Positions 34,117-63,645 of a stretch of 64,000 nucleotides of DNA are shown one piece after another. The stretch lies in contig JBAUGX010000118.1 of the NCBI GenBank assembly GCA_049679965.1, positions 8,064 to 72,063 on the forward strand. Reading direction: 5' to 3'. This DNA comes from Vicinamibacterales bacterium. GTDB lineage: Bacteria; Acidobacteriota; Vicinamibacteria; Vicinamibacterales; CAVVIG01. A model generated the notes under the pieces. It did no database searches and was not told the DNA's origin. It saw only the letters and a list, made by a program, of their open reading frames with translations. A program made the position numbers and the translations under genes. Each line of letters begins with the position of its first letter. Position 1 is the first letter of the stretch.

Positions 34117-34152
34117 TAGAGTACGTGGCGTCCGGCTTCAGCCGGACCGTGA
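34117..34152. repeat. REP-like hairpin element (single-hairpin copy)
   Basis: GTACGTGGCGTCCGGCTTCAGCCGGACCGTGATC has an 8-bp perfect stem (GTCCGGCT / AGCCGGAC). It is near-identical to the first half of the element inside copA at 49979-50034. Confidence 0.8.
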
Positions 34153-41188: not shown

Positions 41189-42253
41189 ATGCTCATCAAG
41201 CGACAGGCTGACCGCGAGCGTCTCACGACGGCGCTCTACCTATTGGTGGTGGGGCTCCTGGCCTACCTCATCTTCCGCGTATTCCAGCCGTTTCTCGTGC
41301 CACTGGGCTGGGCCGCGGTGCTCGTCATCGTGTTCCAACCCGTGCACGAGCGGTTCGAGCGGCGGTGGGGCCGGACGCGGGCCGCCATCGTGAGCACGGC
41401 CGCCGTCGGGATCATCGTGGTGGTGCCGCTGGTGCTGGTCCTCACCGCGTTCGTCCGCGAGGCCATTCAGGCGACGGGCGATGTGCAGCGGGCCTTCGCC
41501 GAGGGCCGGCTGGGGTGGTTCGAACGGGCCTGGCAATGGATTCAGCAGCGGTCAAACGGCGCGCCGCCGATCGACCTGGCCGCGATGGCCGTTGACATCG
41601 CGCGGCGGACGGCCGCGGCCGTCGCCAACCAGGCCGGCGCGTTGCTTCAGAACGTCGCCGTATTCGTGTTCGATCTCGCGGCCACACTGTTCGCGACCTT
41701 CTTCCTGTTCCGAGATCGCGACGCCATCATGCAGGCGATCCGAAGAGCGCTGCCGCTCGACGAGCAGCTCCGGGAACGCCTCATCGCGCAAACGGGCGAA
41801 CTGGTGTCGGCCAGCGTGACCTCGGCCTTCGTGGTCGCGGCCGTGCAAGGCCTGCTCGGAGGGCTGTCGTTTGCCGCCCTGGGCATCAGCTCCCCAGTCT
41901 TCTGGGGCGTGGTCATGGCGTTCTTCTGCCTGCTGCCCTTCGGTGCGTGGATCGTGTGGCTGCCGGCCGCGGTGTTCCTCGTGGCGGGCGGAGACGTGTG
42001 GCGTGGCGTCATCCTCGCGGGACTTGGATTCGCGGCAGTCAGCGGCGTCGACAACGTGCTGCGCCCGATGCTGCTCAGCGGACGGGTGGGCATGAACGGC
42101 CTGCTGGTTTTCATCGGCCTGCTTGGCGGGTTGCGCGTGTTCGGTTCGATCGGTCTCATCCTGGGGCCGACCCTTCTCGCGTTGAGCGTCGGCCTCCTGA
42201 AGACATTCACCACCCCCACACCCGACACTTCCGCGCCGGACGTTGCGAAGTGA
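41189..42253 (+). CDS. AI-2E family transporter (PerM/UPF0118)
   Basis: Eight hydrophobic segments, with the characteristic F.PFL.PL.WA N-terminus and GVDNVLRPMLLSGR. Confidence 0.8.
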   Translation: MLIKRQADRERLTTALYLLVVGLLAYLIFRVFQPFLVPLGWAAVLVIVFQPVHERFERRWGRTRAAIVSTAAVGIIVVVPLVLVLTAFVREAIQATGDVQRAFAEGRLGWFERAWQWIQQRSNGAPPIDLAAMAVDIARRTAAAVANQAGALLQNVAVFVFDLAATLFATFFLFRDRDAIMQAIRRALPLDEQLRERLIAQTGELVSASVTSAFVVAAVQGLLGGLSFAALGISSPVFWGVVMAFFCLLPFGAWIVWLPAAVFLVAGGDVWRGVILAGLGFAAVSGVDNVLRPMLLSGRVGMNGLLVFIGLLGGLRVFGSIGLILGPTLLALSVGLLKTFTTPTPDTSAPDVAK

Positions 42254-42331
42254 CATAGTTACGACGTCACCCCACTTGAGCGGTCCTGCCGATTCAAGGT
42301 ACTCTGCGGTCTGCTGCTGAGAGGCACTGTC

Positions 42332-42363
42332 GGGACTATTTCGCTCGGCTGCGGGATAGTCCC
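42332..42363. promoter_or_regulatory. 32-bp palindromic enhancer-like element, copy 1 (13-6-13)
   Basis: GGGACTATTTCGC-TCGGCT-GCGGGATAGTCCC. The centre lies about 80.5 bp upstream of the GG of the candidate sigma54 promoter at 42427. A near-identical copy is at 52074-52105. Confidence 0.6.
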
Positions 42364-42426
42364 CGGTGTCCTGGCCAGGGTTTCGAAGGCCCCGAGTGTT
42401 TTGTGGCCAAGGCCACCACGCTCGCC

Positions 42427-42441
42427 CGGCATGTCGTTTGC
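42427..42441 (+). promoter_or_regulatory. candidate sigma54 promoter CGGCAT-N5-TTGC for the cytochrome operon
   Basis: CGGCATGTCGTTTGC has GG-N10-GC spacing and lies about 50-65 nt upstream of the cytochrome c start. A TTTGCC-AGA-GGCAAA palindrome overlaps the -12 box. Confidence 0.5.
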
Positions 42442-42489
42442 CAGAGGCAAACCGGCAATGAAGCGCTGTTGGAGAATCAGGAGGAATGT

Positions 42490-42837
42490 TTGAGTAATAC
42501 GACGATGCCCCGAGCGATTTTCTGCCTGGTGGCGATCATGGCTGCGGCGGGCGCAAGGCTCGCCGCACAGGATGCAAAGGCGAAGGGCGAAAAGTTATTT
42601 GCGGACCAAAAATGTGCCCTTTGCCACTCCGTTGGCGACAAGGGCAACAAGAAAGGCCCGCTCGACGAAGTTGGTCGCAAATTGTCCGCCGCCGAGATCC
42701 GCAATTGGATCGTCGATGCGAAGGCGATGACCGAGAAGACCAAGGCCACGCGAACGCCAGCCATGAAACAGTTCAACTTGAAACAGGCCGAGGTGGACTC
42801 GCTGGTGGCGTACCTTCAGTCGCTCACGGGGAAATGA
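42490..42837 (+). CDS. monoheme c-type cytochrome (class I), secreted
   Basis: One CxxCH motif (CALCH), a signal peptide, and a distal Met region. I prefer TTG at 42490 as the start (AGGAGG RBS at 42479-42484, 5-nt spacer); the alternative is ATG at 42505. Confidence 0.8.
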   Translation: MSNTTMPRAIFCLVAIMAAAGARLAAQDAKAKGEKLFADQKCALCHSVGDKGNKKGPLDEVGRKLSAAEIRNWIVDAKAMTEKTKATRTPAMKQFNLKQAEVDSLVAYLQSLTGK

Positions 42838-42841
42838 AGGG

Positions 42842-43369
42842 GTGAGCACTGAACGGCGGAGGTTCCTCGGGGCGCTCCCGTTTCTCGGTGCGCTCCTGGC
42901 CGTCGGCACGTCGAGCGTGGGCGCGCTGCTGGCCGTGCCGCTGGCCAGGTTCGCCATGCATCCGCTTCGACGCAAGCCGGGCGAAGTGGCGTGGTCCGAT
43001 ATCGGACCCACGGCCGATCTGACTTCGCTTGCCGCGCCCATGAAGATGCTCGTCGAGGTCGAGCAGCGCGATGGCTGGCGGAAGATGATTTCCACCAAGC
43101 CTGTCTACGTGACTCGAACCGCAGAAGGCCGCCTGCGCGTACTGTCCGCCGTTTGCCCGCATCTGGGCTGCAGCGTGGCCTGGAATGAAAGTCAAAAGCG
43201 GTTTCTGTGTCCCTGCCACGTCGGTGTGTTTGCCGAAGATGGCGCGTTGGTATCCGGACCTCCGCCTCGTGGCATGGACGAGCTCGACAGCACGGTTGAA
43301 GACGGCCGTCTGAAAGTGCGCTACCAGTACTTCCGCCAGCTCGTCCCGACGCGGGAGATCATCGCGTGA
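42842..43369 (+). CDS. Rieske [2Fe-2S] subunit of a cytochrome bc-type complex
   Basis: Tat-type N-terminus (RRRFL), and the Rieske boxes CPHLGC and CPCHVG. GTG start 4 nt after the cytochrome c stop. Confidence 0.9.
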   Translation: MSTERRRFLGALPFLGALLAVGTSSVGALLAVPLARFAMHPLRRKPGEVAWSDIGPTADLTSLAAPMKMLVEVEQRDGWRKMISTKPVYVTRTAEGRLRVLSAVCPHLGCSVAWNESQKRFLCPCHVGVFAEDGALVSGPPPRGMDELDSTVEDGRLKVRYQYFRQLVPTREIIA

Positions 43370-44784
43370 GCCGGCTCGTCGACTGGTTGGATCGCCGCAC
43401 CGGACTCCGGCAACTGCTGCGCGAGGCGCTCGGCGAACCGATTCCTGGTGGTGCGCGGCTCGCGTACGTGTTCGGTTCCGGTCTGCTATTCGTGTTTCTG
43501 TCTCAAGTGATCACGGGCGTGTTTCTCGCGCTTTACTACGTCCCATCCGCGGATCACGCCCACGTGACGGTCGCCTATATCGTCAAGGAGGTCGCGTCGG
43601 GATCCTTCCTGCGGAGCCTCCATGCCTACGGCTCGAGCGCCATGATCATCATCGTGCTGCTGCACATGGCGCAAACGCTCGTCTACGGTTCGTACAAAGG
43701 GGCCCGCGAGATCCTCTGGGTGGCCGGATGCGTGCTGTTCGCGCTCGTGCTCGGCATGGCGTTTACCGGCTACCTGCTGCCCTGGGATCAGAAGGCCTAC
43801 TTCGCGACCGCCATAGGCACCAACATCCTTGGCGAGGTGCCGCTGATCGGGGAGTGGCTGCAGCGGCTTGTCCGCGGCGGCGCCGACATGGGCACGCTGA
43901 CCGTCTCGCGGTTCTTTGTCGCTCACGTCTTCCTCATTCCAGCGGCCATCTTCGCGTTCGTCGGCCTTCATGTGTTCCTGTTTCGGAAGGCCGGGCCCGC
44001 CGGCCCGCCGTCGGTCGAGGCGGCCCGTCGGCGGACCGAGTTGTTCTATCCGCGCCAGGTACTGATGGATGTCGGGTTCGCGATGACGATCATCGTCTGC
44101 CTTGGAGTTGTTGCCTGGATGTGGCCGGCCGAGCTCGGGCCAGAGGCCAACGCCGCCGATACGCGCTTCCTGCCGCGGCCGGAGTGGTACTACGTGCCGG
44201 TGTTCCAGTGGCTCAAGTACTGGAAGGGGTCCAGCGCGGTCATTGGGATCGTGATCATCCCGGCGCTGCTGGCGGTGTTTTTCGTCGGGCTGCCGTTCTT
44301 TGACCGGAGCCCGGAGCGGTCCCCGTTGAAGCGCCCCGTCACGGTCGGTGCGTTCGCGGCGGTGCTGCTGTCACTCGCCCTGCTTGGTGTGCTCAGCGTG
44401 CTGGAGGATCGCCGCGACCCGGCGATCGCCCAGCAGTTGACCGCGCAGCGGGAGGCCGATCGGCGGTATACCGCCGAGCCGTTCGCGCCGGAAGAGTCGC
44501 CGGCGTCCCTCAAGACCGCCAAGGCGGCGCTGGTCGATCCCGCCCTCAGTCGCGGCAAGGCCGTGTACGAGGCGCAATCCTGTGATGCCTGTCACGGCGA
44601 TGCCGGGCAGGGCACACCCGGCGCGCCGGCCCTTATCGGCCTTGCTGCCAAGTATCCGGGCGAGGAGATGTCGCGAATCCTCAGGATGCCCACCGCGAAG
44701 ATGACCGACGGTGGGATGATGCCGCTCGATATCTCTGACGATGATCTGAAGGTCCTTGTGGCTTACATGAATGCCTTGAAATGA
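43366..44784 (+). CDS. cytochrome b (b6 plus subunit-IV-like) fused to a C-terminal monoheme cytochrome c domain
   Basis: The cyt b N-terminal four-helix region has conserved His residues. Also present: a PEWY motif (RPEWYYVPVF) and C-terminal CDACHG. The start overlaps the Rieske stop (GTGA). Confidence 0.9.
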   Translation: MSRLVDWLDRRTGLRQLLREALGEPIPGGARLAYVFGSGLLFVFLSQVITGVFLALYYVPSADHAHVTVAYIVKEVASGSFLRSLHAYGSSAMIIIVLLHMAQTLVYGSYKGAREILWVAGCVLFALVLGMAFTGYLLPWDQKAYFATAIGTNILGEVPLIGEWLQRLVRGGADMGTLTVSRFFVAHVFLIPAAIFAFVGLHVFLFRKAGPAGPPSVEAARRRTELFYPRQVLMDVGFAMTIIVCLGVVAWMWPAELGPEANAADTRFLPRPEWYYVPVFQWLKYWKGSSAVIGIVIIPALLAVFFVGLPFFDRSPERSPLKRPVTVGAFAAVLLSLALLGVLSVLEDRRDPAIAQQLTAQREADRRYTAEPFAPEESPASLKTAKAALVDPALSRGKAVYEAQSCDACHGDAGQGTPGAPALIGLAAKYPGEEMSRILRMPTAKMTDGGMMPLDISDDDLKVLVAYMNALK

Positions 44785-45707
44785 GTCCTATGAAACTCAC
44801 TCATCGAGTGTCTGTACGGCTGCTCGTCGCCGGCGCCTGTGCCTGGGCGCTCGTGGCCGGCCTACGCGGGTGGCCGGCGGCCGCTCAGTCCAACGACTAC
44901 GTCGGCACGGCGGCGTGCGTGACGTGCCATGGCACCGAGGGCCAGAGTCTGCAGAGGACGCTGCACGGCAAGACGGCGAACCCCCGGACGCCGGCGGCGA
45001 CCCAGGGCTGCGAGTCGTGTCACGGGCCGGGTCGGGCGCATGTCGAGAGCGGCGGAGAAGCGGACAAGATCAAGCGGTTTACCGCCATGGCGGCCCGGGA
45101 CATCTCAGCGACCTGTCTGACGTGCCACAACCGCGGCAACTATGTGCAGTGGCGGGGCAGCGCCCACGATTCCCGCAACCTTTCGTGTGTGACCTGTCAC
45201 TCGATACATAGCCCGAAGTTGGAGAAGGCGCAGCTCAAGGCCGTGTCGATCACGGCGACCTGCGCGGCCTGCCACAAGACGCAAGTCGCCAAGCTCCAGC
45301 GCTTCGGGCACATGCCGGTTCGTGAAGGCAAGATGGAGTGCTCGGCGTGTCACAACCCGCACGGATCGACCAACGTCCGCTTGCTCAAAATAGGCAACTG
45401 GGTGAACGAGACCTGCGTCAGCTGCCACACCGAGAAGCGCGGTCCGTTCCTGTGGGACCACGTGCCGGTTCGCGAGGCGTGCAACACCTGTCACGATCCA
45501 CACGGCTCGAACAACGAACGGATGCTGGTCGCCAAGCTGCCAATCCTCTGCCAGCGGTGCCACATCGGTACCCGACATCCGTCGACCATCTACGACGGCA
45601 ACCAGCTGGCGGCCCGCAGCGGCCGGCTGATTGGTCGTAGCTGCGTGAACTGTCACGTCCAGATTCACGGCTCGAATAGTCCAGCCGGCCACGCGTTCGT
45701 TCGGTAG
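44781..45707 (+). CDS. periplasmic decaheme c-type cytochrome, MtrA/DmsE/PioA/MtoA family
   Basis: Ten CxxCH motifs counted (CVTCH, CESCH, CLTCH, CVTCH, CAACH, CSACH, CVSCH, CNTCH, CQRCH, CVNCH) in 308 aa with a signal peptide. ATGA overlap with the cytochrome b gene. Confidence 0.9.
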   Translation: MSPMKLTHRVSVRLLVAGACAWALVAGLRGWPAAAQSNDYVGTAACVTCHGTEGQSLQRTLHGKTANPRTPAATQGCESCHGPGRAHVESGGEADKIKRFTAMAARDISATCLTCHNRGNYVQWRGSAHDSRNLSCVTCHSIHSPKLEKAQLKAVSITATCAACHKTQVAKLQRFGHMPVREGKMECSACHNPHGSTNVRLLKIGNWVNETCVSCHTEKRGPFLWDHVPVREACNTCHDPHGSNNERMLVAKLPILCQRCHIGTRHPSTIYDGNQLAARSGRLIGRSCVNCHVQIHGSNSPAGHAFVR

Positions 45708-45709
45708 CG

Positions 45710-47833
45710 TTGAGGACCATGCACATGCGAACCCCGATTCTTCTCATCGTGACCGCGCTTCTCCTGCAGCCCGCGGGCGTGATGGGCCAGGGCCTGCCCG
45801 CCAACTCCATTGATTTCGGCGCCCGGGCCACGGAGTTCGCCGCTGGTTCCGACCAGGCGCGAAGCCGGCGCTATCGAGACTCGCGCGACGGCGTCACACT
45901 CGACGCCTTCACGTTCGCAAAAGACACCGACATGCGACGGTTGAGCCTGCAGGCCAATCATGTCGGGTACCTCGACCAGCACTATGCCGCCGCCTGGAAC
46001 GAGTTCGGACGGTTCAAGCTAACCTTCGACTGGAACCAGATCCCGCTGTTGTTCAGTGAGAGCACCAAGACGCTGTTCTCGACATCGAGAGGCGTGCTGC
46101 GCATCAGCGACGCGATCCAGGCAGGCGTGCAAGCGGGCACCACCACGCTCGACGCAGCGGTCTTGGAGGCGCGGCCCCTCGAACTGCGCCTCAGGCGGGA
46201 CGTCGCCGACTTCAGGGTGACGTACAGCGCGACGGACCACGTCGATTTCAACCTGTCGATCAAGAACGCGACGAAGACTGGAAACCAGCCATGGGGCGGC
46301 AACTTCGGCCAATCCAACGACGTGGAGCTCCCCGTGCCGGTCGATACGAGAACGACGGACCTTGGTGCGGGGATCGAGTGGGCCAACGGGCGGACCTCGG
46401 CGCGCCTGGCGTACGACGGATCGTTCTTCACCAACAACGTCAGCACGCTCGTCTGGGACAATCCGCGTCGCGCGACCGACTCGGCCACCGCGGGACCGTT
46501 CCAGGGCCGGATGGCGATGTGGCCCAACAGCAACATGCACACGGGCAGCGCCACCGGATCGCTGACGCTTCCGGCCCGCAGCCACGCGACGGCGTACATC
46601 TCCGTCGGCGACTGGTCCCAGGACGATCCCCTGATCCCCTTCACGATCAACAGCGCCCTGGCGACGATTCCGCTCGACCGGCCGACGGCGAATGCCGACG
46701 CCCGGGTCACGAGCATGAACTACACGTTCCACTCGAGACCGATCGATCTGGTGTCCTATACCGCGCGCTACCGTTCGTACGAGTTCAAGAACCGGACGCC
46801 CGTCTTCAACTCTCCGACCACTGTGTCCTACGACACGACCGTCGCGGCGTTCGCCAAAGGCGGCACGAGTCCCCTCAGTTACACGCGGCGGACCTTGGAC
46901 GCCGACGTGGTGCTGACGCCCTTCACGTACGGGTCGTTCCGTGCAGGGTATACACGCGAGCAGGTCGATCAGACCGTCCGGTTCTTCGATACCACGACGG
47001 AAGATACATTCCGGGTATCCGCCGACACGACGGCCCTGGCCTGGCTCACGCTGCGCGGCGTCTACGAGCACGCCAAGCGCGTCGGTTCGGGGTTCGACGA
47101 GCTGGCGCTCGACGATATCGGCGAGCAAGTGTCGCTGCGCCAATTTGACATTTCAGATCGCACGTCCAATCGGTTCTCAGGCATTGTGCAGGTTGCGCCT
47201 GTGCCTCTCCCGCAGCTGGCGGTGAACGGGTCGGTGTCGGTCGGCGACGAGGATCGTCCGGGTGCGGGATTTGGCCTTCGAAGCAACGGCAATCACGCGT
47301 ACTCGATCGGCGTGGATTTCGTGCCTCGCGACGAAGTATCGATGGGGGTGACGTTCGGGCGTGAGTGGTATACGGCGCTCCAGGCGTCAAGGCAGGCGAA
47401 TCCGGGCGCGCAGTTCAACGATCCCACGCGGGACTGGACGACCAACAGCACCGACACCGCCCAAACCCTGTCGGCCTCGCTCGATCTGCTCAAGGCGTGG
47501 CCGAAGACCGATGTGCGGATGGCGTACGACTACAGCCGTGCGGAATCACAGTACGTGTATGGCTTGGCGCCCAACAGCACGTTGACGCCCGTCGTGCAAC
47601 TGCCCGTGGTCTCAAACGAGCTGCAGCGCGGCACACTCGACGTCCGGTACCATGTCACGCCGCGGCTGGCTCTTGGCCTTGTCTACTGGTACGACCGCTA
47701 CATCGTCAACGACTTCGCACAGGATCCGCAAAGGTTCACCACCCTCGCGCAGCCGTCGTTGCTGATGATGGGGTACTTCTCGCGTCCCTACACCGCCAAC
47801 ACGGTGTCGGCCCGGCTCACCTATTACTGGTAG
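45710..47833 (+). CDS. MtrB/PioB-family outer-membrane beta-barrel (decaheme-associated porin)
   Basis: Signal peptide, about 700 aa with alternating beta-strand-like pattern, and a C-terminal aromatic end (LTYYW). It sits directly after the decaheme gene. The start is uncertain (TTG 45710, ATG 45719 or ATG 45725). Confidence 0.8.
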   Translation: MRTMHMRTPILLIVTALLLQPAGVMGQGLPANSIDFGARATEFAAGSDQARSRRYRDSRDGVTLDAFTFAKDTDMRRLSLQANHVGYLDQHYAAAWNEFGRFKLTFDWNQIPLLFSESTKTLFSTSRGVLRISDAIQAGVQAGTTTLDAAVLEARPLELRLRRDVADFRVTYSATDHVDFNLSIKNATKTGNQPWGGNFGQSNDVELPVPVDTRTTDLGAGIEWANGRTSARLAYDGSFFTNNVSTLVWDNPRRATDSATAGPFQGRMAMWPNSNMHTGSATGSLTLPARSHATAYISVGDWSQDDPLIPFTINSALATIPLDRPTANADARVTSMNYTFHSRPIDLVSYTARYRSYEFKNRTPVFNSPTTVSYDTTVAAFAKGGTSPLSYTRRTLDADVVLTPFTYGSFRAGYTREQVDQTVRFFDTTTEDTFRVSADTTALAWLTLRGVYEHAKRVGSGFDELALDDIGEQVSLRQFDISDRTSNRFSGIVQVAPVPLPQLAVNGSVSVGDEDRPGAGFGLRSNGNHAYSIGVDFVPRDEVSMGVTFGREWYTALQASRQANPGAQFNDPTRDWTTNSTDTAQTLSASLDLLKAWPKTDVRMAYDYSRAESQYVYGLAPNSTLTPVVQLPVVSNELQRGTLDVRYHVTPRLALGLVYWYDRYIVNDFAQDPQRFTTLAQPSLLMMGYFSRPYTANTVSARLTYYW

Positions 47834-47838
47834 CTCAC

Positions 47839-50226
47839 TTACGCCTTCGCATTCCGTAGACGCAGGGCGTTGCCGATGACCGACAGCGAGCTGAAGCTCA
47901 TGGCGGCCGCAGCTATGATGGGACTCAGCAGAAGGCCGAATGCTGGATACAACACTCCTGCGGCGATGGGCACGCCCGCCGTGTTGTAGACGAACGCGAA
48001 AAACAGATTCTGTTTGATATTGCGCATCGTCTGCCGCGAGAGCCCGCGCGCCCGCGCGATGCCGCGCAGGTCGCCCTTCACGAGCGTCACGCCCGCGCTC
48101 TCCATCGCGACATCCGTGCCGGTGCCCATCGCAATGCCCACCTGCGCCTGGGCGAGCGCCGGCGCATCGTTGATGCCGTCACCTGCCATCGCGACGATCC
48201 GGCCCTCCGCCTGCAGGCGCTTGATCTTGTCGGCCTTCTGATCCGGCAGCACCTCGGCCATCACTTCGTCGATACCGAGCTTCCGGGCGACCGCCTGGGC
48301 TGTGGCCTGACTGTCTCCGGTCAGCATCACCAGGCGGACGCCGTCCTTGTGAAGTGCCTCGATCGCCTCGGAGGTGCTCTCCTTGATCGGATCGGCCACG
48401 CCAACCAGTCCGGCCGCCTTGCCGTCGATTGCCACGAACATCACCGTTTGCGCATCCGCCCGGAGCTCCTCGGCGCGTCCCACGAGCGATCGCGCCTCGA
48501 CGCCGAGGCTCTCGAACAAGGCCTTGTTCCCCAGTGCCACCTCGCGGCCATCGACGCGCCCCTTCACGCCCTTGCCCGTGATCGACTCGAACCCCTCGGC
48601 GTTGCCCAAGACAAGCCCTCGGGCAAGGGCGCCGTTGACGATGGCGGCCGCGAGCGGGTGCTCGCTCCCTCGCTCGAGGCTGGCGGCCAGGCGAAGGAGC
48701 TCCGCTTCCTTGACGCCTGGCGCGGGGGTGACGCTCACCAGCGTCGGTTTCCCTTCCGTGAGCGTCCCCGTCTTGTCGACGACCAGCGTATCGACCTTGC
48801 GCAGAACCTCGATGGCTTCCGCGTTCCTGAAGAGCACGCCCATCGTTGCGCCTTTGCCTGTCGCCACCATGATCGACATCGGTGTGGCCAGGCCGAGCGC
48901 GCACGGGCAGGCGATGATGAGCACCGCGACGGCATTGATGAGCGCGTGCGCCATGCGAGGCTCTGGCCCGATGAGCGCCCACACCACGAAGGTGGCGATG
49001 GCGACCAGGATGACGATCGGCACGAAGTAGCCAGAGACGACGTCCGCGAGTTTCTGAATGGGCGCTCGGCTGCGCTGCGCCTCGGCGACCATCGCCACGA
49101 TGCGCGCGAGAAGTGTTTCGGCGCCGACCTTCTCCGCGCGGATGATCAGGCCGCCAGTGCCGTTAATCGTCGCGCCGACCACGCGGTCGCCCGCTTGTTT
49201 CTCCACCGGAATGGGCTCGCCGGTGATCATCGACTCGTCCACATGGCTGTGTCCGTCGACCACGACGCCATCGACCGGCACCTTTTCGCCGGGCCGCACG
49301 CGCAGCCGGTCGCCGACTTCAACGATGTCAAGCGGCACGTCTTCCTCGCGTCCATCCGAACGCAGCCGTCGCGCTGTCTTGGGTGTGAGGCCCAGCAGTT
49401 TTCGGATCGCGGAGCTCGTCTGGCTCCTCGCGCGCAACTCGAGCACCTGGCCGAGCAGGATGAGCGTCGTGATGACGGCGGCGGCCTCGAAGTAGACAGC
49501 GACCTCGCCTTGCGCGCGGAACGAATCAGGGAAGACTCCTGGAAAGAGCGTGGCCACGATGCTGTAGATGTAGGACACGCTCACACCGAGCCCGATGAGC
49601 GTGAACATGTTCAGGTTACGGTGGACGACGGATTGCGCGGCCCGTTCGTAGAACGGCCACGCGGCCCAGAGGCACACCGGCGTGGCGAGCGCGAGCTCGA
49701 CGAGCAGACGCGTCCGCATGGACATGACAGACAGCGATCCGACCCCCGGCAGCATGTCGCTCATCACGGAGATGAGGAGAGGCGCCGTCAGGGCCGCCGC
49801 CAGCCAGAAGCGGCGCGTCATGTCCCGCAATTCGGGATTGTCCTCTTCGTCTGCGCTGGTGACGGTGCGGGGCTCGAGCGCCATCCCGCAGAGGGGACAC
49901 GTGCCCGGTCGGTCACTGAGGATCTCGGGGTGCATGGGACACGTGTAGATCCCGCCCGCTGACTGTTTCGGAGTTGTCGTGGGGTCCGCCTTCAGGCGGA
50001 CCTCGGTCCGGCTAAAGCCGGCCCCCACGTACGTCTTGGGGTTGTCGCGGAACTTCGCCAGGCACCCGGCGCAGCAGAACAGATACGTCTCGCCCTCGTA
50101 GTTGAACCGATGAGGACTCTCCGGCTTGACGCGCATCCCGCACACCGGATCGGTTGCCGTCGCTGGAGGAGCGGGCGTGTGCACGTCCGGGTCGGGCGCG
50201 TGATGCTCGTGCGTCATGCCCATCAT
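47839..50226 (-). CDS. copA: copper-translocating P1B-type ATPase
   Basis: N-terminal Cys-rich TRASH/YHS-like region (CGMRV ... FCCAGC) and YTCPMHPE ... CPLCGM. Also the TM CPC motif ([11 protein letters not shown]), DKTGTLT and [10 protein letters not shown]. Confidence 0.95.
49979..50034. repeat. REP-like double-hairpin element lying in frame inside copA
   Basis: On the + strand: GGTCCGCC-TTCA-GGCGGACC (perfect 8-bp stem), then GGTCCGGCT-AA-AGCCGGCCC. In the copA sense it encodes ..[19 protein letters not shown].. between the two N-terminal Cys-rich modules. Confidence 0.75.
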
Positions 50227-50352
50227 TGTCTCCTACACCGCCATTCCCGAGACCTTCAACGTGCCTTTCCGCAAGGCGCGCAACTTGGTCGCGTAGAAGA
50301 CAGGAATGAAGATGATGAAGAGCACACCTAGGGCTGCACCCAGGTGCGAGCG

Positions 50353-50796
50353 TCAGCCGATCGACGCGATGACTCGGCGAAGCCGCTGGTCGGCCTCGTC
50401 AACCACCGGCGTCAGCTCCGGGTTGTCGACGATCCTGAACATCGCCCGTGGATCGGCAATGGACACGACAACTCCGCCGCCTTCGGGCGCCGCTTGCACG
50501 ACGACGTTACACGGAAGGAGCAGGCCGATCTGGGGATCAACGGTGAGCGCCTTGTGAGCGAGGGTCGGGTTGCACGCGCCCAGGATGATATACGGCCGGA
50601 ACTCGGCGTTGAGCTTCTTCTTGAGGGTATCCCTGATGTCGATTGTCGTCAGGACGCCGAATCCTTCGTTCCTGAGCGCCGTCGTGACCCGTGCGACGGC
50701 CTCTTCGACCGTTCCTTGCTCGAGGCGGCGCTCAAATCCATAAGAGACCGGGGAAGCCGCCTTGGGCCGGGCCTTGAGTGAATCGGTGTTCAACAT
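50353..50796 (-). CDS. DUF302-domain protein
   Basis: From the ATG at 50796 (GGAGAGAGG RBS): ...VTTALRNEGFGVLTTIDIRDTLKKKLNAEFRPYIILGACNP ... LPCNVVV, the DUF302 pattern. The upstream 88 aa of the track ORF look non-coding. Confidence 0.8.
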   Translation of the reverse strand: MLNTDSLKARPKAASPVSYGFERRLEQGTVEEAVARVTTALRNEGFGVLTTIDIRDTLKKKLNAEFRPYIILGACNPTLAHKALTVDPQIGLLLPCNVVVQAAPEGGGVVVSIADPRAMFRIVDNPELTPVVDEADQRLRRVIASIG

Positions 50797-51218
50797 GGCG
50801 GTATTCCTCTCTCCGATGCCGCATTCCACTTCTGCACAGATTCCTCGAGAACTTCTCGCGCGTCGGGAGACAGCGGTGTGCTGCCCTGGTCGGGCTTCGC
50901 GAAGAGTTGGACGATCCTGAAGAAACGCAAGCCGCCGAACGCCACCTTGAAGGCAAACTCGGCGTTTCCCGCTCTCACGCCGGGCTCGACATCCTGGATG
51001 TTTCCGAACGCCACGATCCGGCCAGATCCCGGGTCCGCGTACCCGCGCGCGGCCGCGCACGAGTAGAAGCGACCGCCCAGATTCACCCGGCCCGCATTCC
51101 CTCCAAGGGACTCGTTCTTCAAGAGACGGATCATCGGGCCGTTCATCTGCACGAGATTGTGCATGACCGCAGGGTCATCGGCGATAGCCGGGTCCATGAC
51201 TGCAAATCTAGTGGTCAC
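50790..51218 (-). CDS. hypothetical protein
   Basis: 142-aa ORF with reasonable GC3. It overlaps the tonB stop and the DUF302 start by a few nt, which suggests an operon. The opposite-strand ORF is Arg-rich. No family recognised. Confidence 0.5.
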   Translation of the reverse strand: MTTRFAVMDPAIADDPAVMHNLVQMNGPMIRLLKNESLGGNAGRVNLGGRFYSCAAARGYADPGSGRIVAFGNIQDVEPGVRAGNAEFAFKVAFGGLRFFRIVQLFAKPDQGSTPLSPDAREVLEESVQKWNAASERGIPPC

Positions 51219-52053
51219 GTTTCTGTCCTTGGATGCTGAAGTTGAACGTCACGGTCAACACGAACGACACCGGCGTGCCGTTCAAAACGAGCGGGGCGTA
51301 CTGCCACTGCCTGAGTGCGTCGATGGCGGCGTTGTCGAGCAGGGGATGACGCGACCGCAAGACCTTGATCGATTCGACACAACCGGTCTTGTCCACAACG
51401 GCTTCGAGAATGACCAGCCCGGTTATCTGCATGACTGACGCGACGCTCGGGTAGACAGGCTCGACGCGGTGGATGAGTGATGGCTCGTGAACCAGTCCGC
51501 CGATTCGCACGGGTGCGTCGGGTGCCTTGGCTGCCGGCGGCGGAGGCGGAGCCTCGGACACGAGGCCACCGACGATCCCGCCAATCGTTCCACCCGGGAC
51601 TCCGCCTTCAACACCGCCTTCAACGCCAGCGACGGTCGTGGCATGGCCGGCATCAGGCTCGGGCGGTCGCACCTCAGGTGGCGCCTCAACCGGTGCCGCC
51701 GCTTCGGCGGTCGGAGCCGGCTTCGGGCGTGACTCAACCGCCCGAGGGGGTCTGGGCGCTGCGGGCGCTGGCGGTGGAGGCGGTGGAGCGGGCGGCGGAG
51801 CCACGAACGCCATCATCCTGGGTGCCGTGGGCAACACCCTGACGCCTTCAGTCATGGCGATAGCGACAACGCCGCCAACGACAGCCGCGTGGAGTGCAAA
51901 AGCCAAGGCCTTCGAGATCGGAGAACGCTCCCGAAGCGGTCGCTCGGTTGTCCCGATAACCAGGTCGAACATACGAAGAAAAAGTGCAGGAACTGCGCCA
52001 GTCAGAAGTCCGTTCGGGAGAGGCTGTTCACGGTGTTTTGACGCCAGGCCCAC
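51208..52053 (-). CDS. tonB: energy transducer TonB
   Basis: N-terminal TM segment, a Pro-rich spacer (PPPAPPPPPPAPAAPRPP), and the C-terminal TonB domain (EPVYPSVASVMQITGLVILEAVVDKTGCV ... LRQWQYAP). The start may be Met28 (51972). Confidence 0.9.
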   Translation of the reverse strand: MGLASKHREQPLPNGLLTGAVPALFLRMFDLVIGTTERPLRERSPISKALAFALHAAVVGGVVAIAMTEGVRVLPTAPRMMAFVAPPPAPPPPPPAPAAPRPPRAVESRPKPAPTAEAAAPVEAPPEVRPPEPDAGHATTVAGVEGGVEGGVPGGTIGGIVGGLVSEAPPPPPAAKAPDAPVRIGGLVHEPSLIHRVEPVYPSVASVMQITGLVILEAVVDKTGCVESIKVLRSRHPLLDNAAIDALRQWQYAPLVLNGTPVSFVLTVTFNFSIQGQKRDH

Positions 52054-52073
52054 AGGGCGAAGGGATTGCCGGG

Positions 52074-52105
52074 GGGACTATTCCGCGAGACCGCGGGATA
52101 GTCCG
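52074..52105. promoter_or_regulatory. 32-bp palindromic enhancer-like element, copy 2 (13-6-13)
   Basis: GGGACTATTCCGC-GAGACC-GCGGGATAGTCCG. It has the same architecture as 42332-42363, and its centre lies about 81.5 bp upstream of the GG of the promoter at 52170. Confidence 0.6.
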
Positions 52106-52169
52106 CGCTATGCCTTGACGCGCCGCCTGAACCCGAGCGTTGTGCGGGTCAGATAGCCATCTTCACGCG

Positions 52170-52184
52170 TGGCACATCGCTTGC
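52170..52184 (+). promoter_or_regulatory. candidate sigma54 promoter TGGCAC-N5-TTGC (consensus) for the MgtC/ATPase operon
   Basis: TGGCACATCGCTTGC lies 46 nt upstream of the ATG at 52230. Confidence 0.65.
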
Positions 52185-52229
52185 CGTTTATGGCCATCGA
52201 CGCGCTCAACGGGCAATACTGAACACGTA

Positions 52230-53468
52230 ATGGAACTTCTCCCTGCCGGCATCATCGTGGCCGCGCTCGGCGGCTTGGCGATTGGCGTCGAGCGGCAGTG
52301 GTCCGGTCATGCGACTGGTCCGCGCGCCCGATTTGCGGGCATCCGGACGTTCACTCTACTCGGCGCGGTCGGAGGTGTCGCCGGCTGGTTGTGGACGCAG
52401 CAGGTCTATGCGCTGGCGACCGTCCTGCTGGCGGCTGGCGCGGCACTCGTGGTCGCCGCCTACATTGCTGCAAGCCGGGCCGAAGTCGATGGCACGACCG
52501 AGGTCGGCGCCATCGTCGTCCTCGGCACGGGCGCGCTGTCTGGCCTCGGTCATATCACGCTCGCGAGCGGCATTGTCGCGGTCACGACGCTCATTCTGCT
52601 CGAGAAGTCTCGTCTGCACGCGTTCGTCGAGCGCCTCGATGATGAGGAGCTGCGGGCGGCGGCACGATTCGCCGTGATGGCGGTCGTCGTGCTGCCGCTC
52701 TTGCCGGCCGGCCCGTACGGGCCGCTCGGCGGCGTTCGGCCGCGCGACATCTGGCTGCTGGTGCTCTTCGTCTCCGGGCTGAGCTTTGCCGGCTACATCG
52801 CCCGCCGCGCCATCGGCGCGAGCCGCGGCTACCCGTTGGCGGGTCTCCTTGGCGGCCTGGTCTCGTCCACCAACGTGACGCTCATGTTCTCCCGCGCGAG
52901 CCGCGACTCGCGCCAGGCCCGCATACCGCTGGCCTACGGCGTTGTGGCGGCGTGCACCGTCTTGTTTGTTCGCGTGGCCATCACCGTGTCGGTCCTCAAC
53001 TCGAGCCTCGCGTGGACGCTGCTGCCGTATCTCGGTCCGCCGTTCGTCGTGGGCGTACTGATTCTGGCGACTGGCTTCCACGATGCGCGCCATGAGCCGA
53101 CACACCTCGACGTGCCCACCAACCCGTTGCAGATCGGCGCGGCCCTGCAGATGGCCGCCATGTTTCAGGCCGTGTTGTTCGCGGTCGATCTGATGCGCCG
53201 GTTCTGGGGCGATGCCGGCGTTATCGTGTCGGGCGCCGTGCTGGGGCTGACCGACATGGACGCGTTGACGATCGCGATGGCACGCGGCGCGTCCTCCGGC
53301 ATCCCGCTCGAGGTTGCGGCGCGCGCCGTCGCGACAGGCATTCTGGCGAACACGGCGCTGAAGCTCGCCCTGGCTGTGGTCATCGGCCGTGCCCGGTTCA
53401 GGCGTGTGGTCGGAGCAAGCCTGGCCGCCATCGGCCTGGCGATTGGCGCGTCGCTGGCGCTTCAGTGA
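52230..53468 (+). CDS. MgtC/SapB-family plus DUF4010 membrane protein
   Basis: From the ATG at 52230: LGGLAIGVERQWSGH ... AGIRTFTLLG (MgtC-like N-terminus), followed by about 10 further TM segments. Confidence 0.75.
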   Translation: MELLPAGIIVAALGGLAIGVERQWSGHATGPRARFAGIRTFTLLGAVGGVAGWLWTQQVYALATVLLAAGAALVVAAYIAASRAEVDGTTEVGAIVVLGTGALSGLGHITLASGIVAVTTLILLEKSRLHAFVERLDDEELRAAARFAVMAVVVLPLLPAGPYGPLGGVRPRDIWLLVLFVSGLSFAGYIARRAIGASRGYPLAGLLGGLVSSTNVTLMFSRASRDSRQARIPLAYGVVAACTVLFVRVAITVSVLNSSLAWTLLPYLGPPFVVGVLILATGFHDARHEPTHLDVPTNPLQIGAALQMAAMFQAVLFAVDLMRRFWGDAGVIVSGAVLGLTDMDALTIAMARGASSGIPLEVAARAVATGILANTALKLALAVVIGRARFRRVVGASLAAIGLAIGASLALQ

Positions 53469-55357
53469 AGGACTATTCCACGAGGTTGGCAGTGCTAGGC
53501 TCTCTGCCGGTGAGGTTCTGGCGTGACTCGAATGCGCTGATTGCCTTCCTGAGTCTCGCCGGTATCCTCGTCCACCTCACCCTGCGGTATCTGGTCCCAG
53601 CCGGGTCGTCCGGCCTGGCCACGAATCTGCCTCTGCTCATCGTGCTCGCCGTCGGCGGGTCCCTCCTTGTGGTGCGCCTGGCCTGGCGGGCCATTCGCGG
53701 CCAGTTCGGGGCCGATCACCTCGCCGGGATTTCGATCGTGGCGTCGGTCCTGCTCGAGGAGTACCTCGCGGGCGCGATCGTGGTGCTGATGCTGGCCGGC
53801 GGGGAAACGCTCGAAGGCTACGCCGTCGCCGAGGCGACCTCGGTGCTGCGCGCCCTGGCGAGCCGCGTCCCGACGCTTGCGCATCGCCGGCGCGGGACGG
53901 GCTTCGAAGACGTACCGGTGGCCGACATCGCCGTTGGCGAAGAACTCTCCGTCCTCCCTCATGAAATCTGCCCAGTGGACGGCGAAGTGGTTCAAGGTCA
54001 CGGGACGATGGACGAGTCGTACCTGACTGGCGAGCCGTTCAATATTTCCAAAGGTCCTGGCGCGTCCGTCCTGTCCGGCGCCATCAACGGCGAGGCGGCG
54101 CTCGCGATTCGCGCCACTCGCGCCGCCGCCGACAGCCGCTACGCCCAGATCATGCAGGTCATGCAGGAGGCCGAGCAGCGGCGTCCGAGGCTCCGCCGCA
54201 TCGGTGATCAGCTCGGCGCGTGGTACACACCACTGGCCGTCGGGCTGGGCTTGGGCGCGTGGTGGTGGTCTGGAAACCCTCTACGCTTCCTGAGCGTTGT
54301 CGTCGTGGCGACGCCGTGTCCGTTGCTGATCGCCATCCCCGTTGCCATCATCGGCGCCATTTCCTCGGCCGCGCGGCGGAGCGTGATCATCAAAGACCCG
54401 GCAGCCCTCGAGCAGCTGGCGCGCTGCCACACCATGATTTTCGACAAGACCGGGACGCTGACCTTGGGGCGTCCCAGCCTGAGTGACGAGCTGTATGCGC
54501 CGCCCTTCACCCGCGAGACCGTCCTGCCGGCCGTTGCGGCGATGGAGCAGTACAGCCGTCATCCCCTGGCCGCCGCCATCGCGCAGGTCGCGGCGGACGG
54601 CAAGCATGCGCTGCCGGCCGTCGAATGGATTCGCGAAGAGCCGGGCGTGGGCTTGCACGGCAAGGTGGGCGACCGGTCCATACTGATCACCAATCGGACG
54701 CACGCGGCCAGCCGGTTCGAGTTGCCGCCGAGCCAGCCGACGGGTCTCGAATGCGTGGTCATCATCGATGATCGCTACGCGGCAGTCTATCGATTCCACG
54801 ACGTGCCACGGCCCGACAGCCGAGGGTTCGTCAAGCACCTGGGCCCGAAACACGGGTTTACCCGCGTGCTCGTCGTCTCTGGCGATCGCGAGGCCGAGGT
54901 CAGGAGGCTGGCCGACCTGATGGCGATCACGCACATCTACGCCGAGATGTCGCCAGAGGAGAAGGTCGCGATCGTCCGCGAGGAAACAAGACGCGCGGGA
55001 ACGTTGTTTATTGGAGACGGCATCAACGACGCGCCGGCCTTGATGACGGCCACCGTGGGGATCGCGTTCGGGCTGCACAGCGATGTGACCACTGAGGCCG
55101 CACGTGTGGTCATCATCGACAGCTCGCTGTCGAAGGTCGATGAGCTCATTCACATCAGTCTTCGTCTCCGGCGGGTCGCGTTGCAGAGCGTGGTTGGCGG
55201 CATGGCCCTGAGCGGCGCCGGCATGATGTTCGCGGCCTTTGGCCTGCTGTCGCCGGTTGCCGGGGCGGTGTTTCAGGAGGTGATCGATCTGTTCGCCGTC
55301 CTCAACGCCCTGCGCATGACGCGGCCCGCCCGAGTACGGACCGACTTCGAGCGCTAG
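53465..55357 (+). CDS. heavy-metal P1B-type ATPase with a TPCP transmembrane motif and no N-terminal metal-binding domain
   Basis: [31 protein letters not shown], and the TGEP actuator motif (LTGEPFNI). GTGA overlap with the upstream gene. Confidence 0.9.
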   Translation: MKDYSTRLAVLGSLPVRFWRDSNALIAFLSLAGILVHLTLRYLVPAGSSGLATNLPLLIVLAVGGSLLVVRLAWRAIRGQFGADHLAGISIVASVLLEEYLAGAIVVLMLAGGETLEGYAVAEATSVLRALASRVPTLAHRRRGTGFEDVPVADIAVGEELSVLPHEICPVDGEVVQGHGTMDESYLTGEPFNISKGPGASVLSGAINGEAALAIRATRAAADSRYAQIMQVMQEAEQRRPRLRRIGDQLGAWYTPLAVGLGLGAWWWSGNPLRFLSVVVVATPCPLLIAIPVAIIGAISSAARRSVIIKDPAALEQLARCHTMIFDKTGTLTLGRPSLSDELYAPPFTRETVLPAVAAMEQYSRHPLAAAIAQVAADGKHALPAVEWIREEPGVGLHGKVGDRSILITNRTHAASRFELPPSQPTGLECVVIIDDRYAAVYRFHDVPRPDSRGFVKHLGPKHGFTRVLVVSGDREAEVRRLADLMAITHIYAEMSPEEKVAIVREETRRAGTLFIGDGINDAPALMTATVGIAFGLHSDVTTEAARVVIIDSSLSKVDELIHISLRLRRVALQSVVGGMALSGAGMMFAAFGLLSPVAGAVFQEVIDLFAVLNALRMTRPARVRTDFER

Positions 55358-56839: not shown

Positions 56840-57787
56840 CTAGAGAAACGTCGTCGACGCGAGCCCGCGAAGGCCCGCCTTGAGCGCCGATGGACCGCGC
56901 GGACGGAACCGGCTCGGAAGGGCTACGACCGGCACGAGCCCCTGGCAGAGCACCTGATACGTGATCGACCCGGGACGCGGGCCGAACACGCCGCGCGCGC
57001 CTCGCAGGACGAGCACGATCAGTCCAATGCGCAGACGGACCGCCTCGGCCGAGATCGAATTCGCGGGGTCGCCGACGAGCACGCAGTGTTCGGCGTGGAC
57101 CCGAGGGCCAAGCCTCGCCATGAGGTGTTCGAGCTGTCTACGCGCTTTGGCCACGCGACGGCCTTCAGAGTCGCTGGGACGCACCCGGAACCAGGACGGC
57201 GCCTGCAGGTCCGGCAGGACGTGGACCAGTAGCAAGGCCGCCCCGAAACCACGTGCAAATTCTGAGGCGGCGCGTGCGTCCGACCTCGCATGAGCGCCGA
57301 GCTCGATTCCCGCGAGAAACCGGTGCCCGGGCCAGGAGGACGGCGGCGTTCTCGCGGCGCCGCCCGGCACGGCCAGAACGGGTACCGTGGCACGCCTCAG
57401 CACCTCACGTGTCGTCGATCCGAAAAAGAGCCGCTTCGGGCCGCGGAGGCCGTGCGTGCCCATCACCACCATGTCGGCGCGACGGCGTTTGGCAACCTTC
57501 TCGATCTCGCGTGCCGGTACACCGAGCGACACCACGTAATCGACAGACCGGGCACGTGTTCCTCCGATCGCGTGGTTGACGAAGCGACGCAGTTCTCTCG
57601 TCGAGGTTCTCGCGAGCGCGCTGCGGTCGTAACCGATGGCGGCGGATGCGAGCAACAGGTCCTCCACGAACAGCACCGTGAGCCGTCCCTGGAACTGTCC
57701 GGCCAGTGCGGCGGCGTACCTGAGCGCCCGACGCGAGGACTCCGAGAAGTCAACCGGGCACAACACCCGCAAAACATGGCGCTTCAT
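56840..57787 (-). CDS. tandem universal stress protein (2 x UspA domain)
   Basis: From the ATG at 57787 the first domain reads VLCPVDFSESS ... MVVMGTHGLRGPKRLFFGSTTREVLRRATVPVLAV. A second Usp-like half follows. ATGA overlap with the acd stop. The rest of the 544-aa track ORF is out-of-frame overlap with acd. Confidence 0.8.
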   Translation of the reverse strand: MKRHVLRVLCPVDFSESSRRALRYAAALAGQFQGRLTVLFVEDLLLASAAIGYDRSALARTSTRELRRFVNHAIGGTRARSVDYVVSLGVPAREIEKVAKRRRADMVVMGTHGLRGPKRLFFGSTTREVLRRATVPVLAVPGGAARTPPSSWPGHRFLAGIELGAHARSDARAASEFARGFGAALLLVHVLPDLQAPSWFRVRPSDSEGRRVAKARRQLEHLMARLGPRVHAEHCVLVGDPANSISAEAVRLRIGLIVLVLRGARGVFGPRPGSITYQVLCQGLVPVVALPSRFRPRGPSALKAGLRGLASTTFL

Positions 57788-59973: not shown

Positions 59974-60454
59974 GCGCGTCTGGCAGGACGAACTCGTGCT
60001 CGGGATGATGCACGGTCAGCACCGGACACGGTGCCGTGCGGACGACGCGCTCGGCGACGCTCCCCATGAACAAGCGGGCGAGCCCGGCTCGCCCATGCGT
60101 GCCGATTACCACCAGATCGACGTTGTTGTTCTTCGCGTACTCCACAATCGACTGGGCCGGCCCGATCGACGTCAGCACGTCGCTCTTCGTGCGGATCGGC
60201 GGCCGGTCGTTGTCGATCAGCCGTTCGTCGAGTTGCTTTCGCGCGGCGTCTTCGATGTCGCGCTGCAGATCGGGCAGAAGCATGACGTAGCTCTCCCCGC
60301 CAAGACCGGCATTCCGCATCATCACGTTCTCGGCGACGTGGACCACGTGCAGCGTGGCGCCGAAGGTGCGGGCGAGTGTGCGACCGTACGCCAGCGCAGC
60401 GTCCGCGGCTTCACCGAAATCGGTGGCCACGAGGATGTTGTTCATCTGAATCAT
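59951..60454 (-). CDS. universal stress protein UspA
   Basis: From the ATG at 60454 (GGAGGG RBS): ILVATDFGEAADAAL ... DLVVIGTHGRAGLARLFMGSVAERVVRTAPCPVLTV. Confidence 0.85.
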   Translation of the reverse strand: MIQMNNILVATDFGEAADAALAYGRTLARTFGATLHVVHVAENVMMRNAGLGGESYVMLLPDLQRDIEDAARKQLDERLIDNDRPPIRTKSDVLTSIGPAQSIVEYAKNNNVDLVVIGTHGRAGLARLFMGSVAERVVRTAPCPVLTVHHPEHEFVLPDALVATAKA

Positions 60455-60487: not shown

Positions 60488-60502
60488 GCATGCTCTGTGC
60501 CA
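60488..60502 (-). promoter_or_regulatory. candidate sigma54 promoter TGGCAC-N5-ATGC for the usp-acd-usp operon
   Basis: The reverse complement reads TGGCACAGAGCATGC, about 34 nt upstream of the ATG at 60454. A GCTCCA-GCGCT-TGGAGC palindrome (60575-60591) is centred about 82 bp upstream. Confidence 0.55.
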
Positions 60503-60600
60503 CAGTGGATTTTTACCCGATTGCGTGAAATTCCCCAAACTGTTCGGATTCCCGCCGCCTGCGGTAAGCTCACTGCTCCAGCGCTTGGAGCTCTCCCCAC

Positions 60601-61677: not shown

Positions 61678-61805
61678 ACAGCACCTGAGCTTGGCGCGAC
61701 TCTTGAAACGCCGCGAGCACGTGCGTGGAGACCTCGTTGATCGCCAATTCGCCAGTTGAAAGAACCGGAGGAGCCGAGCCGGAAGGCGCGCCGAATAATT
61801 CCCAT

Positions 61806-63613: not shown

Positions 63614-63645
63614 ATTTTTCCCCCGCTTCGCCACGAAATAGTCCC
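63614..63645. promoter_or_regulatory. degenerate third copy of the 13-6-13 element (one good half-site)
   Basis: The reverse complement reads GGGACTATTTCGT-GGCGAA-GCGGGGGAAAAAT. The left half matches 12/13 to copy 1, while the right half keeps only GCGGG. The centre lies about 89 bp upstream of the promoter GG at 63718. Confidence 0.4.

Follow-up and report, generated by a model that had tools for sequence, protein, structure and literature searches.

The site of NtrC at glnAp2 reads TGCACC-N5-GGTGCA and that of NifA reads TGT-N10-ACA. The closest published system to the one considered here is NmpRSTU of Myxococcus xanthus, in which a haem-containing O2-sensing kinase controls the NtrC-like activator NmpR (PMC11841059). 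NmpR binds GCGCA-N5-TGCGC, with two sites per promoter, and its sigma-54 regulon includes Usp, a P-type ATPase with a cbb3 oxidase, and its own operon (PMC11841059). The NifA proteins of alpha- and beta-proteobacteria have two cysteine pairs at and just after the AAA+ domain that mediate redox sensing (PMC10590331). The present work concerns a 64,000-nucleotide stretch of a Vicinamibacterales genome (assembly GCA_049679965.1, contig JBAUGX010000118.1, positions 8,064 to 72,063), hereafter the window, in which a 32-bp palindrome occurs upstream of a cytochrome/porin operon (copy W1) and of an MgtC/P1B-ATPase operon (copy W2). The palindrome is probably, at a probability of roughly 0.8, the enhancer (upstream activating sequence) of an enhancer-binding protein (EBP) that drives sigma-54 RNA polymerase.

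W1 and W2 resemble the sites of the NtrC family in being dyads approximately 80–150 bp upstream of GG-N10-GC, conserved together with the promoter and apparently dependent on the face of the helix, and the candidate activators have the C-terminal Fis-type HTH of that family. They differ from NtrC and NifA sites in their unrelated sequence, in a far longer dyad of 32 bp, and in the presence of one site per promoter; the NifA, NtrC, and NmpR strings quoted above are all absent from W1 and W2. The gene content here recalls that regulon: a kinase, activators, and Usp genes are grouped with ATPase and cytochrome operons that have sigma-54 promoters. The sensor of NmpRSTU is a protoglobin kinase with a phosphorelay via a hybrid kinase, whereas the window kinase is FixL-type, and the second, receiver-less activator and the nifU gene present here are not described for NmpRSTU. 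The initial annotation of this DNA regarded the motif as undescribed, and in literature searches neither the motif nor any account of sigma-54 regulation in Acidobacteria came to light.

Palindromes at a constant distance from sigma-54-type promoters

The two palindromes, each composed of two 13-nucleotide arms around a six-nucleotide spacer, read exactly as the initial annotation gave them (Table 1). A degenerate 13-6-13 pattern allowing three mismatches or fewer has W1 and W2 as its sole matches in the 64 kb (G+C content 64.5%) and no match in 100 dinucleotide-preserving shuffles. As DNA palindromes, the arms are imperfect, with 11 of 13 positions complementary in each copy; both mismatches of W1 are T opposite G, while W2 has one T opposite G and, as its outermost pair, G opposite G.

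Each copy is followed by a -24/-12 element, recognized by GG and GC doublets 10 nt apart within TGGCAC-N5-TTGCW. That of W2 has the full consensus core, and that of W1 keeps GG and GC with two mismatches in the flanks; the start codons lie 59–78 nt past the GG. The distances from the palindrome centre to the GG, given earlier as 80.5 bp for W1 and 81.5 bp for W2, agree with those recomputed from the first G. Two further exact instances, in the public sequences L004 and L014 described below, have offsets of 79.5 and 81.5 bp, respectively, and all four (from three organisms) fall within the interval of 70–200 bp upstream of the -24/-12 element adopted for an enhancer dyad. Under random placement, a fixed offset of the four sites has a probability of about 1e-8 or lower. 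The two operons thus share a site and its offset; site and promoter are conserved as a pair in one orthologous locus (L004), and the arrangement recurs in a third organism.

No sigma-70 promoter was predicted by a scan of the W1 and W2 loci, and no match to the IHF consensus (WATCAA-N4-TTR) was seen by eye between site and promoter at either. The other sigma-54-like promoters in the window, at 10391 (minus strand), 16508 (plus), and 31893 (minus), lack a GGACTAT-type site; each has a downstream open reading frame (ORF), and the two remaining activators of the window presumably act on them.

As the arms of any palindrome do, these would also form a hairpin, here a stable one of 12–13 bp, with z-scores from -3.4 to -6.9, in which the T-opposite-G mismatches of W1, W2, and L004 lie in the promoter-sense strand and become G-U pairs in RNA, and W1 lies 79 bp past the stop codon of an AI-2E-family transporter gene. 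These features would be expected of an RNA stem-loop (terminator, stabiliser, or leader) or a repetitive extragenic palindrome (REP)-like repeat, an origin that is nevertheless highly improbable. The hairpin is not followed by a T-run, and a terminator scan calls neither palindrome; three of the four exact sites (W2, L004, and L014) are flanked by divergent genes and precede the promoters on either side, so they cannot mark the end of a gene's transcript; and in L014 one mismatch is C-C, with no compensating change. Rfam returned nothing relevant at E up to 1 across 41800–53800. A repeat is opposed by the low copy number: the 64 kb hold two copies, each at that promoter offset, and public collections hold almost none, whereas a true REP-like element of the same genomes, GTCCGCCTTCAGGCGGAC, shows no such promoter relation. 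This REP-like element, with variants, is located at 34130–34147 and 49984–50001 of the window and also in L026, L033, and L034, with two copies upstream of nifU in L033.

Conservation and helical phasing of related sites

Two public collections were scanned, neither of which includes the window's own genome: genomes with 18 specified bases and metagenomes with 20. The genome scan gave 11 matches against a rough chance estimate of about 9, and only L004 is relevant; nine were rejected, either because they lie in coding sequence (L002) or because they are terminator-like hairpins of unrelated taxa, among them Firmicutes and Bacteroidota. The metagenome scan gave three matches, among which only L014 is relevant. 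L004 belongs to a Vicinamibacteria metagenome-assembled genome (MAG), GCA_041484265.1, and is syntenic with the W2 locus, sharing an ADP-forming acetyl-CoA synthetase (ACS), Usp, and an ATPase ortholog of 85% identity that is preceded by OsmC where the window has MgtC. Its palindrome, GGGACTATTCCGC-GAGGCT-GCGGGATAGTCCG, is upstream of a perfect TGGCAC-ATCGA-TTGC, which has the orientation of the operon. In the alignment of the window with L004, the palindrome is identical at 30 of 32 positions and the promoter at 14 of 15, while the spacer of approximately 60 bp is near-random and the flanks have diverged. L014 is an unrelated soil contig of 1.2 kb, in which CGGACTATTCCGC-ACTGCT-GCGCAATAGTCCG and TGGCAC-GGCTC-GTGC precede the gene of an exported protein. 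The exact motif is missing from loci with ATPase orthologs of 72–77% identity (L015, L016, L019, and L020), so that the exact form is limited to a narrow lineage; the nearest protein relatives are from Vicinamibacteria/Vicinamibacterales MAGs and "Acidobacteria bacterium RIFCSPLOWO2" genomes.

The W2 locus in the window also contains a string that resembles a half-site. The initial annotation placed this left-half-like string at 53471, at the 5-prime end of the ATPase gene; the string is there, but it starts at 53470 and lies in the 23-bp intergenic gap between the MgtC/DUF4010 stop codon (53466–53468) and the database-called ATPase start. It scores 14.9 bits as a half-site by the position weight matrix (PWM) introduced below, lacks a partner arm, and could be a recombination scar, an internal promoter/operator, or a chance match (approximately 0.005 expected). 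The adjoining string just past it, CAGTGCTAGGCTCTCTGCCG, is homologous to the ATPase upstream region of L026, in which the ATPase gene comes first. The repetition of the left arm and spacer of W2 at 14 of 15 positions some 1.4 kb away, together with the rearrangement that places OsmC at the position of MgtC in L004, would suit W1 and W2 being functionless relics of duplication or recombination, with this half-site part of the same scar. The chance of this is the slightest of all those weighed here: the surroundings of W1 and W2 are unrelated outside the palindrome and promoter core, the site is conserved in L004 while its flanks diverged, and the same offset appears again at the unrelated locus L014.

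Diverged relatives of the motif were sought with the PWM, which was trained on no sites other than the four exact palindromes (eight half-sites) and scanned over 260 kb (the window and 13 loci). Its best new matches lie upstream of nifU in the window (W3), L031, L033, and L034; further matches are upstream of the cytochrome/porin operon ortholog in L034 (weaker in L033) and, in L017, upstream of a Usp gene, and one match is inside a coding region. A -24/-12 match follows 60–125 bp downstream in six of the seven top-scoring new matches, compared with 3.6% expected for random positions; the nifU sites are mutually orthologous, so the six of seven overstates the number of independent events. The W3-type site is kept upstream of nifU in the three other genomes, 88.5–90.5 bp from the promoter, and is asymmetric, with a conserved promoter-proximal half (ACGAAATAGTCCC or GCGGAATAATCCC) and a T-rich, degenerate distal half. 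The sites of the cytochrome operon orthologs read TGGGCGATTTCGC-GGATGC-GCGGGGAAAAGTCC in L034 and TGGGTGATTTCAC-AGGTGG-GCGGGGAAAAGTCC in L033, and the consensus of the proximal half over all sites is GSGGRAWARTCC. The ortholog of the W1 promoter has canonical spacing in L033 (TGGTCC-TTCAA-TTGC). In L034, at approximately 9112–9127, it reads TGGTCC-GTCAAA-TTGC, with 6 nt between the boxes instead of 5; either the assembly is wrong here or the promoter has been inactivated or has shifted. Gibbs sampling of 21 promoter-upstream regions returned a GGGGA-W-rich motif consistent with the family; it had no shuffled control and is not relied on.

The distance from the end of the proximal half to the GG is 65–67 bp for the exact sites, 74–76 bp for nifU, 56 bp for the cytochrome orthologs, 77 bp for Usp in L024, and 107 bp for Usp in L017. 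These offsets differ by multiples of approximately 10 bp, with a Rayleigh R of about 0.9 at a period of 10–10.5 bp and p of about 0.001 for 7–8 groups, in a sample that is small, with a site set chosen post hoc and groups that are partly orthologous. The exact sites are centred 79.5–81.5 bp from the GG, and the diverged ones are offset from them by steps of approximately 10 bp. Such phasing is what would be predicted if an activator looping to sigma-54 polymerase depends on the face of the helix. The activator would bind as a dimer, or as a larger oligomer that forms around the dyad, approximately 80 bp upstream of the -24 GG (approximately -105 from the transcription start), loop on a fixed face of the helix to the closed sigma-54 complex, and use ATP to open both operon promoters. 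Conservation in L004, the recurring offset, and helical phasing support the earlier proposal of an enhancer-like element common to the cytochrome/porin and MgtC/P1B-ATPase operons, through which one activator may control both.

Dyad symmetry by itself names no binding protein, and the palindrome might instead be the operator of another dimeric factor, such as a metal or redox repressor or a co-regulator, acting on the two operons and on the TonB-like gene at W2. W2 lies in a divergent region approximately 21 bp from the start of the TonB-like ORF (51208–52053, minus strand), so control of that gene is possible, both target operons are metal- or redox-related, and 32 bp is unusually long for an EBP site. 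An operator is still improbable in view of an offset to the -24/-12 element that stays at 79.5–81.5 bp whatever genes flank it, the lack of a divergent gene at W1, the helical phasing of related sites to sigma-54 promoters, the presence of a related site upstream of the nifU-EBP2 operon in four genomes, and the lack of any other regulator gene conserved beside these loci.

Several points weigh against the enhancer as well. Its support is wholly computational. The 13-6-13 dyad is longer than most characterised EBP sites, the exact motif is found in just two other public sequences (L004 and L014), and the sites of the cytochrome operon orthologs have drifted from it. W2 and L004 are orthologous, as are the four nifU sites, hence these are not independent and the statistics overstate the support. 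The W1 promoter, CGGCAT-N5-TTGC, deviates from the consensus and the spacing of its L034 ortholog is N6. Many NtrC-type activators use at least two dyads, while each promoter here has one site, and the PWM scan found no second 32-bp site near W1, W2, L004, or L014. No rpoN gene is present in the window or the related loci retrieved; the four activator genes imply that the organism has sigma-54. The genomic linkage is also split, with EBP2 beside the cytochrome operon and EBP1 beside the ATPase, as detailed in the next section.

Candidate activators and a possible two-tier cascade

The initial annotation expected the binding protein among three activators of the window. Three sigma-54 activators are indeed present, at 8653–9819, 14249–15703 (minus strand), and 62229–63596 (EBP1), and the best candidate may instead be a fourth, receiver-less protein, EBP2, which starts approximately 15 bp beyond the window end, after nifU; this region, from 63780 onward, is L029 11552–12833. 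The content beyond the window was read from a near-identical contig with 14 differences in 11.8 kb; a P2-type cation ATPase gene comes next after EBP2. EBP2 has 348 aa with AAA+ and HTH_8 domains, no receiver or sensor domain, and four conserved cysteines at the AAA+/linker junction (ENAC-ERIAQTC-x-C-GxVxVGC), the position of the cysteine pairs in O2-sensitive NifA. NCBIfam gives no specific name for EBP1 or EBP2, with all equivalog scores far under the cut-offs.

If the palindrome is an enhancer, the odds that EBP2 reads it are a little short of even; EBP1 is also a serious candidate, at slightly lower odds, and another protein is unlikely. For EBP2, the nifU-EBP2 pair directly follows the cytochrome/porin operon in L034 (MAG GCA_041484265.1) and L032/L033 (RIFCSPLOWO2_02_FULL_64_15), and the conserved proximal half-site at the nifU-EBP2 promoter suggests autoregulation. 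For EBP1, the gene adjoins the ATPase in L017/L018, and in the window as well as in L031 and L016 nifU comes directly after it. The recognition helix of EBP1, NRDQIRYR, is invariant across all genomes. That of EBP2, KRSTLGDRINRCGL, is identical wherever the RAATARTCCC half-site is present; in L016, the helix is DRIRHCGL and the nifU site is GCGGGTTCACCC, both having changed together (half-site RAATARTCCC against GGTTCACCC). This single case of covariation slightly favours EBP2 as the reader.

At the head of the island stands a kinase whose N-terminal PAS domain aligns with the FixL haem domains of the PDB at E = 7e-40, including the proximal-His motif (EEHDRYMERY...IIGIGR...DGTTFPIHLSVGEM). 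With such a FixL-type haem-PAS, the island is probably under O2 control. A gene set of kinase, response regulator, EBP1, nifU-EBP2, ATPase, Usp, ACS, and Rieske/cytochrome b recurs across Vicinamibacterales, sometimes joined by LDH or ADH, and resembles a hypoxia regulon in content. From the gene content, we infer that the palindrome belongs to a hypoxia/redox regulon; that a protein binds it, that expression requires rpoN, and which signal and succession of steps the cascade follows are likewise inferences.

A tentative proposal, against which the odds clearly lie, is that the palindrome is the target of EBP2 and that EBP2 forms the second tier of a FixL-type cascade with its own Fe-S, iron, or redox checkpoint, switching on a porin-cytochrome conduit and a P1B-5-like Fe/Ni pump when O2 runs out. 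In the mechanism that we propose more generally, low O2 would release the FixL-type kinase to phosphorylate EBP1, and EBP1 would activate sigma-54 promoters including that of nifU-EBP2. EBP2, perhaps gated by its own cysteines and by the NifU-domain protein, would then bind the 32-bp dyad and remodel the closed complex, turning on the cytochrome/porin and MgtC/ATPase operons.

The closest analogue of this proposed two-tier arrangement is the rhizobial logic from FixL to NifA. As in the rhizobial FixLJ/RegSR-to-NifA cascades, a FixL haem-PAS sensor would stand on top and a cysteine-bearing sigma-54 activator below; unlike them, the intermediate is an NtrC-type activator rather than FixJ, and genes for an electron-transfer conduit and a metal pump take the place of nif genes as targets, with a site other than TGT-N10-ACA. 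EBP2 itself differs from NifA in having no GAF domain, a score of 338 against a cut-off of 529 bits, and a different cysteine spacing. In consisting of only AAA+ and HTH, EBP2 is like PspF and HrpR/HrpS, and since it is transcribed from a sigma-54 promoter, its amount rather than phosphorylation may set its activity. Unlike these proteins, it has no evident PspA- or HrpV-like partner, it is co-transcribed with a NifU-domain protein, and it falls under the PspF cut-off.

Neighbouring features and the putative regulon

The gene content that the initial annotation assigned to the two operons, cytochrome/porin and MgtC/P1B-ATPase, holds by Pfam and NCBIfam (Table 1). The TPCP transmembrane motif of the ATPase is typical of the P1B-5 Fe/Ni subgroup and is taken as a lead only.

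Table 1. Positions of the palindromes, promoters, and genes described in the text, in window coordinates.
Feature	Position	Strand	Description
W1	42332-42363	strandless	13-6-13 palindrome GGGACTATTTCGC-TCGGCT-GCGGGATAGTCCC; putative upstream activating sequence of the cytochrome/porin operon
-24/-12 element at W1	42427-42441	+	CGGCATGTCGTTTGC = CGGCAT-GTCGT-TTGC; GG at 42428; W1 centre 42347.5
Operon 1, whole	42492-47833	+	Pfam, NCBIfam
Cytochrome c	ORF 42403-42837	+	likely start TTG 42492 or ATG 42506
Rieske	42842-43369	+	
Cytochrome b/c fusion	43366-44784	+	
DmsE/MtrA-type decahaem cytochrome	44781-45707	+	
MtrB/PioB porin	45710-47833	+	
W2	52074-52105	strandless	13-6-13 palindrome GGGACTATTCCGC-GAGACC-GCGGGATAGTCCG; putative upstream activating sequence of the MgtC/ATPase operon
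-24/-12 element at W2	52170-52184	+	consensus; TGGCACATCGCTTGC = TGGCAC-ATCGC-TTGC; GG at 52171; W2 centre 52089.5
Operon 2, whole	52230-55357	+	
MgtC+DUF4010 membrane protein	52230-53468	+	
Isolated half-site	53470-53484	+	GGACTATTCCACGAG; W2 left arm and first three spacer bases, 14/15 positions
P1B-type ATPase	53492-55357	+	621 aa; motifs TPCP, DKTGT, GDGIND; start from database protein call
Usp-ACS-Usp operon	59951-60454, then 57784-59949, then 56840-57787	-	
Usp-ACS-Usp promoter	60488-60502	-	sigma-54 element TGGCAC-AGAGC-ATGC
W4 (tentative)	60507-60536	strandless	T-rich palindrome GGATTTTTACCC-GATTGC-GTGAAATTCCCC between Usp-ACS-Usp and kinase operons
Histidine kinase	60601-61677	+	FixL-type haem-PAS; presumed O2 sensor
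Response regulator	61806-62198	+	single-domain
EBP1	62229-63596	+	NtrC-type activator; receiver, sigma-54 AAA+, HTH_8
W3	63614-63645	strandless	asymmetric related site ATTTTTCCCCCGC-TTCGCC-ACGAAATAGTCCC upstream of nifU
nifU promoter	63717-63731	+	consensus sigma-54 element TGGCAC-ATGGG-TTGC
nifU	start 63780, past window end	+	74-aa NifU-domain gene

W4 is the least certain of the sites, its PWM score of 12.7 bits being within the range of chance matches in coding DNA. Its ortholog in L024 (1570–1601) reads GGGATATTTCCCC-TATCGG-GTGAAATTCCCC and lies approximately 84 bp from the GG of the Usp promoter, against approximately 20 bp in the window, where the offset is short because approximately 64 bp and a small ORF present in L024 are missing. 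A putative fifth site at 61791 was rejected, as it overlaps the start codon of the response regulator and its conserved N-terminal codons ATG GCG AAA AAA.

Other strings in the island and near the activator genes were also recorded. Between W3 and the nifU -24 element, a second palindrome, GCGCCG-AAATCC-CGGCGC (63683–63700), has its centre approximately 26 bp upstream of the GG; it is kept in L031, has the analogous CCCGCCAGATTTCCGGG in L033 and L034, and may be the site of another factor. Between the kinase and response-regulator genes, TTGGCGCGACTCTTGAA (61691–61707), kept as TTGGCNCGACTCTTGAA in L024 and L026, is -24/-12-like, yet has GA where the GC of -12 is expected. Directly upstream of the start of the activator gene at 14249–15703 lies a 22-nt inverted repeat, GGGGTTTGGGATTTGGGATTCG/CGAATCCCTAATCCCCAATCCC (15743–15798), which is 86% complementary with a 12-nt gap and unlike W1/W2 in motif. 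Upstream of the ATPase ortholog in L026 (RIFCSPLOWO2_12_FULL_65_11), a different T-rich palindrome, GGAGGTTTTTCC-N9-GGAAAAACTTCC, at 2624–2656 is approximately 102 bp from a minus-strand TGGCAT-N5-TTGC and may be a local version of the same enhancer family.

Read as an enhancer, the element is a lineage-specific motif whose mechanism is ordinary; what gives it interest is the organism, the content of the regulon, and a cascade that may have two tiers. The Vicinamibacteria, an abundant group of soil Acidobacteria, are seldom cultured, and their gene regulation is, to our knowledge, a blank. The motif ties a FixL-type O2 sensor, an MtrAB/PioAB-like conduit with a bc-type complex, and a metal-efflux ATPase with Usp and an ATP-yielding acetyl-CoA synthetase into one testable regulon. 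If the cascade through EBP2 were true, it would be a route to regulating extracellular electron transfer that is not described in any organism. If the enhancer is confirmed, extracellular electron transfer would be part of the sigma-54 hypoxia response in Vicinamibacteria, and the motif would be usable to predict that response in metagenomes.

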